In this document: piece after piece, positions 17,752 through 18,500 of the stretch
Layout: each line of letters begins with the position of its first letter
Numbering within the stretch: the stretch's first letter is position 1
Program-made: the position numbers and the translations under genes
Notes under the pieces: model-generated
Databases searched by the model: none
Seen by the model: the letters and a program-made list of their open reading frames with translations, nothing else
What the model was told of the DNA's origin: nothing
IMG/VR virus record: IMGVR_UViG_2534682324_000033
Length of the DNA: 18,500 bases
Strand: one strand, 5' to 3'
Source of the DNA: a virus
Taxonomy: Duplodnaviria > Heunggongvirae > Uroviricota > Caudoviricetes

Positions 17752-18443
17752 ATGAAATATCCGACAGGCGTGGAAAACCATGGAGGGAAATTACGTATCT
17801 GGTTTGTTTATAAAGGCGTAAGAGTCAGGGAAAACCTGGGGTTCCTGACACAGCAAAAAACAGGCGCGTTGCAGGTGAGCTACGCGCCTCTGTTTGTTAC
17901 GCAATAAAAACTGGTGTTTTCGACTATGCAAAACAGTTTCCCTCCTCACGCAATCTGGAAAAATTTGGTGAGGCCCGACAAGATTTAACCATAAAAGAAC
18001 TGGCTGAAAAATTTCTGGCACTGAAAGAAACTGAAGTCGCAAAAACATCACTCAACACATACCGTGCCGTCATCAAAAATATCCTGAGCATAATCGGTGA
18101 AAAAAATCTTGCCTCATCGATTAATAAAGAAAAATTACTGGAGGTTCGTAAAGAGCTACTGACTGGATACCAGATCCCCAAAAGTAACTATATTGTTACA
18201 CAACCAGGGAGATCGGCTGTAACTGTAAATAATTACATGACAAATCTTAACGCCGTGTTCCAGTTTGGTGTTGATAACGGTTACCTGGCAGATAACCCGT
18301 TTAAGGGGATCTCGCCATTAAAGGAATCAAGAACCATTCCGGATCCTCTTTCGCGGGAGGAATTCATCCGTCTTATCGATGCGTGCAGAAATCAGCAAGC
18401 CAAAAATTTATGGTGTAATACCGTCCTCAGTGGTGATTTTTAA
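17752..18443 (+). pseudogene. phage tyrosine integrase, N-terminal and core-binding region, frameshifted at a G run (intQ-like)
   Basis: ATG 17752 encodes MKYPTGVENHGGKLRIWFVYKGVRVRENLG, then the frame breaks at GGGG 17838-17841; the integrase-like sequence continues in another frame (VPDTAKNRRVAGELRASVCYAIKTGVFDYAKQFP...[19 protein letters not shown]) to a stop at 18443; catalytic domain not seen before the window ends. Confidence 0.7.
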
Positions 18444-18500
18444 TGTGACGAAATTACGCCCCGGACAGGTAACAAAAACTTCAGCCTTTACGATCTTCAT

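Follow-up and report, generated by a model that had tools for sequence, protein, structure and literature searches.

A frameshift followed by a 2,964-bp deletion almost certainly accounts for the dead integrase gene of prophage Sp12 in Escherichia coli O157:H7

The stretch of DNA analysed here (18,500 nucleotides, hereafter the window) carries at its right end an integrase-like gene that changes its reading frame in a run of G residues and shows no catalytic domain before the sequence stops. This raises the question whether the gene is truly inactivated, or whether it only appears so due to a miscounted homopolymer and the end of the available sequence. The comparison with related genomes indicates that the gene is almost certainly dead, having first acquired a frameshift and then lost its 3' half together with the neighbouring DNA in a deletion of 2,964 bp.

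The region between 17400 and 18500 matches dozens of E. coli O157:H7 genomes at 100% identity, among them those of the strains Sakai and EDL933, and a window position p corresponds to position p + 2,236,580 of the Sakai sequence NC_002695.2. The right end of the window represents the right (int-proximal) end of the lambdoid prophage Sp12 of O157:H7, which is annotated in Sakai as “prophage Sp12, lambda-like phage”. The integrase remnant is the Sp12 pseudogene itself (“intR, pseudogene, ECs_5736”), which begins at window position 17752 and is 100% identical. In EDL933 the gene (EDL933_RS35185) was described by PGAP as [quoted passage not shown] and is followed on the opposite strand by an incomplete “hypothetical protein” ending at window position 18500. 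The pseudogene status (RefSeq) and the excision defect (literature) are already known. In the Sakai and EDL933 annotations of Sp12 intR, neither the endpoints of the deletion nor the missing attR and rspAB nor the intermediate state found in O55:H7 are described. The features of the integrase region are:

17466-17717, plus strand: apparently intact excisionase gene, 83 aa (Pfam PF06806, putative excisionase, E=1.6e-31)
17752-17907, plus strand: 5' ORF of the integrase pseudogene, 51 sense codons and a stop codon at 17905-17907 (translation)
17838-17841, plus strand: GGGG run, site of the 1-bp deletion (GGGGG in intact alleles by direct comparison)
17841-18416, plus strand: integrase codons 31-222, shifted by -1 against the frame of the start codon (translation, PF12167 positions 30-65, PF13102, tblastn)
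18415-18416, no strand assigned: deletion junction with a 2-bp GT microhomology common to the int and rspA sides (window, K-12 and DEC5B side by side)
18417-18443, plus strand: foreign tail of the frame-3 ORF, NTVLSGDF and stop codon (antisense of rspA)
18415-18500, minus strand: 5' end of rspA, 86 nt long (codons 1-28 and 2 nt), with nothing else of the rspAB operon left; its ATG marks the end of the window

The query gene used for the comparison with intact homologues consisted of the window sequence, one additional G and the 3' part of K-12 intQ, and encodes 426 aa in 1,281 bp. Its top-ranked matches cover all 1,281 bp in one piece with an identity of 99.8% and carry the annotation of an intact “tyrosine-type recombinase/integrase”, and at least 80% of the rebuilt gene is present in 2,710 genomes. 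In strain 118UI (comparison locus L004) and in strain O128:H27 90-9281 (L005) the genes are arranged in the order dicB, ydfD, exonuclease, xis, int, rspB, rspA, ynfA. Intact orthologues are thus found at this locus and served to map the lesions of the window copy, in keeping with a pseudogene. The intact E. coli prophage alleles (e.g. WP_000876984.1) combine the xis-int module with an att site beside rspB. The intact integrases of phages and prophages differ from the remnant in carrying five G residues (G5) and a full 426-aa ORF with the catalytic domain PF00589, and the prophages additionally retain attR. Closely related integrases are encoded by the Escherichia phages Tritos, HannyBb, PhiR42_1 and mEp460_ev081, which share a protein identity of 99.3-99.5% with the 118UI integrase; the VT1-Sakai integrase shares about 62% identity with the intact allele.

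Within the integration module the excisionase gene is the upstream partner of int. It is annotated as excisionase in Sakai and EDL933 (DUF1233), and strains whose int is intact carry an annotation of the identical protein (WP_000005552.1). Upstream of it an exonuclease of 823 aa is encoded (14922-17393, plus strand), which contains a C-terminal Rv2179c-like 3'-5' exonuclease domain (PF16473, E=4e-66) and whose gene of 2,472 bp has the same length in 118UI, 90-9281 and O55:H7 strain DEC5B. The general recombination function of Sp12 has been scored as defective (PMC2669165).

According to the initial annotation the N-terminal frame of the integrase stops after 52 codons, and the translation agrees, giving 51 sense codons and a stop codon that ends at 17907. 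Only the first 30 codons from the ATG at 17752 are native (M1-G30, MKYPTGVENHGGKLRIWFVYKGVRVRENLG) and match residues 1-30 of the intact integrase at 100% in a tblastn search; the last 21 codons are out of frame, the switch reading MKYPTGVENHGGKLRIWFVYKGVRVRENLG/FLTQQ... The integrase sequence continues in frame 3 from 17841 (VPDTAKNRRVAGELR... / VPDTAKNRRVAGELRASVCYAIKTGVFDY...) with 97.5% identity to the intact protein over the integrase part (tblastn), and this frame is terminated by a stop codon at 18441-18443. The integrase-like sequence had been assigned to the entire frame from 17841 to 18443. While the frame and its stop codon were recovered, the integrase sequence itself already ends at 18414-18416 (C222), and the last eight codons are antisense rspA.

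The comparison of the G run with the intact 426-aa homologues revealed GGGGG in the homologues versus GGGG in the window: the integrase genes of 118UI and 90-9281 read CCTGGGGGTTCC at this site and the window reads CCTGGGGTTCC. The missing base leads to a -1 frameshift after codon 30, and a single uninterrupted frame is absent. The proposal that one extra G at 17838-17841 would join both frames was borne out, given that the intact alleles indeed carry G5, but the additional base would not restore the function because the catalytic part of the gene is deleted. In a search with 71 nt around the G run the allele with four G residues (G4) was represented by 312 records with an identity of at least 99%, a band that may include up to 20 partial alignments. 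Among the matches listed below 99% the alignments span 72 bases with few exceptions and mostly belong to annotated intact integrases. The atypical O157:H7 strain LSU61 (NZ_CP038336.1) has an annotated intact “site-specific integrase” with an identity of only 93% over the 71-nt probe, which suggests a different prophage or allele in this lineage.

The consequences of both lesions are visible at the level of the protein domains. The arm-binding domain PF12167 (Arm-DNA-bind_2, 65 positions) is split exactly at the G run, with positions 1-29 matched in frame 1 at E=6e-8 and the remaining positions 30-65 in frame 3 at E=8e-11, whereas it is continuous from 1 to 65 in the intact homologue (E=5.5e-24). 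Such a split is no chance pattern. From codon 31 to codon 222 the sequence completes the arm-binding domain, passes through the SAM-like core-binding domain and ends ~22 residues into the catalytic domain. The SAM-like domain was detected by PF13102 in residues 53-155 of the frame-3 product (23.2 bits versus a cut-off of 22.3), and PF14659 and PF24624 scored slightly under their cut-offs in the same product.

In a Pfam profile search neither of the two window products matched PF00589. The earlier observation that no catalytic domain is seen was therefore correct, and the reason lies in the loss of the corresponding DNA, the positions 18415-18500 being rspA. In the intact homologue PF00589 covers residues 201-392, and its catalytic domain aligns to the Tn1549 Int structures 6EMY and 6EMZ. 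The active-site motifs of the intact protein (TGVR230PGE, SR359H360T, GH382 and VY392GKW) are located within residues 227-392. The catalytic residues, as assigned by sequence alignment only, are R230, the conserved Lys, R359/H360, H382 and the nucleophile Y392, and all of them lie beyond C222, the last native residue. The intact homologue shows the same domain order (PF12167, SAM-like domain, PF00589) as the heterobivalent tyrosine integrases of the lambda type. In contrast to these, the window copy keeps the two DNA-binding domains alone, split by the frameshift, and lacks the active site.

Exactly 2,964 bp are missing at the junction relative to O55:H7 DEC5B (L009), and the same breakpoint is seen against 118UI, 90-9281 and K-12. 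This larger lesion had escaped the initial annotation. The deleted segment comprises int codons 223-426 and the stop codon, a 38-bp spacer, the att core, ynfP, rspB and rspA codons 29-404. The remaining rspA fragment is 100% identical to nucleotides 1-86 of rspA in K-12 as well as in L004, L005 and L009. No IS element remains at the deletion junction. Judged solely from the 2-bp GT microhomology, the deletion may have arisen by microhomology-mediated illegitimate recombination. As a side effect of the same 2,964-bp deletion, O157:H7 is left without rspB and without all but 86 nt of rspA, i.e. without the starvation-sensing operon (compare L009 5940-8185).

An 80-nt probe across the junction was fully covered in 295 of the 5,426 complete E. 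coli genomes, a figure that derives from another search than the 312 G4 records and does not describe their co-occurrence per genome. Among the carriers listed all were O157:H7 or unserotyped STEC, and in every other genome the probe matched the int half or the rspA half alone.

O157:H7 is generally accepted to descend from the O55:H7 lineage. A hypothetical query combining G4 with an undeleted int was matched by O55:H7 DEC5B at 100% over 937 bases. The int gene of this strain is of full length and annotated as “frameshifted”; with one G restored its product differs from the 118UI integrase in two of 426 residues. Furthermore, DEC5B contains the att core and an intact rspB, and its rspA carries a nonsense mutation (Q246*). 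Since this strain of the progenitor lineage has the G4 allele without the deletion, the frameshift preceded the deletion. The opposite order, with the deletion as the first event, was also considered and was rejected on the basis of the perfect match in DEC5B and of a second hypothetical query combining G5 with the junction. The latter had no perfect match, the best being O157:H7 at 99.9% with a span of 721 bases versus the 722 bases of the query.

The genomes compared show directly the two lesions, the order in which they arose, how far they have spread and that attR is lost, and almost certainly the course of events was as follows. The ancestor encoded a lambda-type tyrosine integrase of 426 aa with an arm-binding, a SAM-like core-binding and a C-terminal catalytic domain, located next to attR and just upstream of ynfP-rspB-rspA. 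In a first step, the loss of one base from the G5 run at codon 30/31 broke the frame of the arm-binding domain in the common ancestor of O55:H7 and O157:H7, or earlier. The nonsense mutation in rspA accompanied this frameshift stage, ahead of the deletion. In a second step, in the O157:H7 lineage, a presumably illegitimate deletion of 2,964 bp across GT removed the catalytic codons along with the attR core, ynfP, rspB and most of rspA.

Two rival explanations take the damage as apparent rather than real. Homopolymer runs are error-prone on some platforms, and the frameshift might on this account be a sequencing or assembly error in an otherwise intact gene. The probability of this is negligible, however, since the identical GGGG is present in hundreds of independently sequenced complete genomes (about 295) including the Sanger-era sequences of Sakai and EDL933, the G4 allele follows one lineage consisting of O157:H7 and O55:H7 DEC5B, and the 3' half of int is physically deleted anyway. 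With the deletion junction found in 295 of 5,426 complete genomes, a sequencing error can be excluded, and the lesion is a true 1-bp deletion in the G5 run. Hardly more can be said for a catalytic domain located just past the right end of the window, although the window stops only 57 bp after the stop codon of frame 3. In Sakai the 5' fragment of rspA is followed by ynfA, ynfB, speG, ynfC and ynfD, the same order as after rspA in K-12, and the breakpoint was placed to the base against three undeleted genomes. This reading was rejected on the flanks of Sakai and EDL933 and on a tblastn search, in which the intact integrase found no more than residues 1-30 and 30-228 within 6 kb to either side. 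The rightward extension suggested by the initial annotation, in this case by 6 kb of downstream Sakai sequence, therefore reveals no catalytic domain because the catalytic codons are deleted and not situated beyond the window end.

It also seems highly unlikely that the remnant is still used, by slippage at the G run or by an internal restart, as a catalytically dead protein that binds att or arm sites as a regulator or interference factor. A +1 correction would allow reading through 222 native residues with two DNA-binding domains, the xis gene upstream is intact, and the sequence is conserved across O157:H7, although the latter is equally predicted by recent common descent. However, to our knowledge GGGG before a U does not belong to the recognised slippery sequences, and the G4 allele in O55:H7 is a plain frameshifted gene of full length. 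Moreover, the attR of Sp12 itself is gone, and a scan of the region 17300-18500 detected no sigma-70-like promoter site. The terminator scan of the same region yielded two terminator-like sites versus 1.3 expected.

The reading of the Sp12 integrase as a gene inactivated in two steps is also relevant for the mobility of the prophage. The 11-bp att core GAAATCCATAA is located at the annotated left end of Qin in K-12, where it overlaps the start of ydfJ, and again 38 bp past the intQ stop codon. It was likewise found 38 bp past the int stop codon in 118UI, 90-9281 and DEC5B, and furthermore at the boundary between Sp11 and Sp12 in Sakai (L006 2589). No copy was found in the window or in the right flanks of Sakai and EDL933. 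An excisable prophage is flanked by attL and attR, and in Sp12 the attR core is gone. Due to the loss of both the enzyme and one of the two recombination substrates, site-specific excision would not be possible even with an integrase provided in trans.

Asadulghani et al. (2009) stated that Int “has been disrupted in Sp3, Sp11, and Sp12” and predicted non-excision for all three prophages (PMC2669165). In their experiments, circularisation, replication and packaging of Sp12 all gave negative results (PMC2669165). The excision deficiency that the initial annotation held to be probable has thus been demonstrated by experiment for this prophage.

A related integrase sequence is present in the tandem neighbour Sp11 (L006 1856-2599, corresponding to Sakai 2203355-2204098), where residues ~210-426 are retained with an identity of 80%. 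This part is fused to a truncated exonuclease gene and is followed by the att core at the Sp11-Sp12 boundary. Thus, Sp11 carries a catalytic half and Sp12 a DNA-binding half, and neither of them has a working integrase.

The orthologue in K-12, intQ (b1579) of the cryptic prophage Qin, occupies the same position upstream of ynfP-rspB-rspA-ynfA and shows a DNA identity of 98.5% over the window positions 17872-18416. The initial annotation had pointed to intQ as a parallel case. While b1579 is indeed annotated as a pseudogene, its lesion is an independent one, namely a 5' truncation in which codons 1 to ~40, xis and the greater part of the exonuclease gene (ydfE') were lost beside an IS2E remnant (L003 6844-7549, corresponding to K-12 1650843-1651548). 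In contrast to the Sp12 gene, intQ keeps the whole catalytic domain, and attR and rspAB are retained. A common lesion of intQ and the Sp12 int was considered and rejected, given that the K-12 homology begins only at 17872 and the site of the G run is missing there.

The deletion of 2,964 bp might have been adaptive and have become fixed in O157:H7 by locking the tandem Sp11-Sp12 in the chromosome and by removing the remains of rspAB, an operon that Q246* in rspA had already inactivated in DEC5B. We regard this as unlikely; if true, it would represent a small adaptive step in the transition from O55:H7 to O157:H7. The findings explain at the level of base pairs why Sp12 stays fixed in the chromosome of O157:H7, without an integrase active site and without attR. 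They also provide two lineage markers, the G4 allele, which outside O157:H7 was found in O55:H7 DEC5B, and the int-rspA junction of the 295 genomes. The locus is an example of stepwise prophage domestication, with one integrase inactivated independently in K-12 (IS2-associated) and in O157:H7. Beyond this bookkeeping the significance is slight, and the outcome will not surprise the specialist.

Several further features were detected elsewhere in the window. The DicF sRNA (14227-14278, plus strand; Rfam RF00039, 76.7 bits) is located upstream of dicB, as in Qin of K-12. A toxin-antitoxin locus of the hok/sok type (7057-7381, minus strand) was recognised by the sok antisense RNA (RF01794, 116.9 bits), and its CDS is annotated as “regulatory protein MokC for HokC”. 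The sRNA STnc100 (RF02076, 100.8 bits) and three phage-borne tRNA genes, which are Arg-UCU, Arg-UCG and Ile-CAU according to the Sakai annotation, occupy the positions 3099-3271 and 4045-4291, respectively, on the minus strand, and both the sRNA and the tRNA cluster are placed between the Q antiterminator gene and an ORF of 616 aa.
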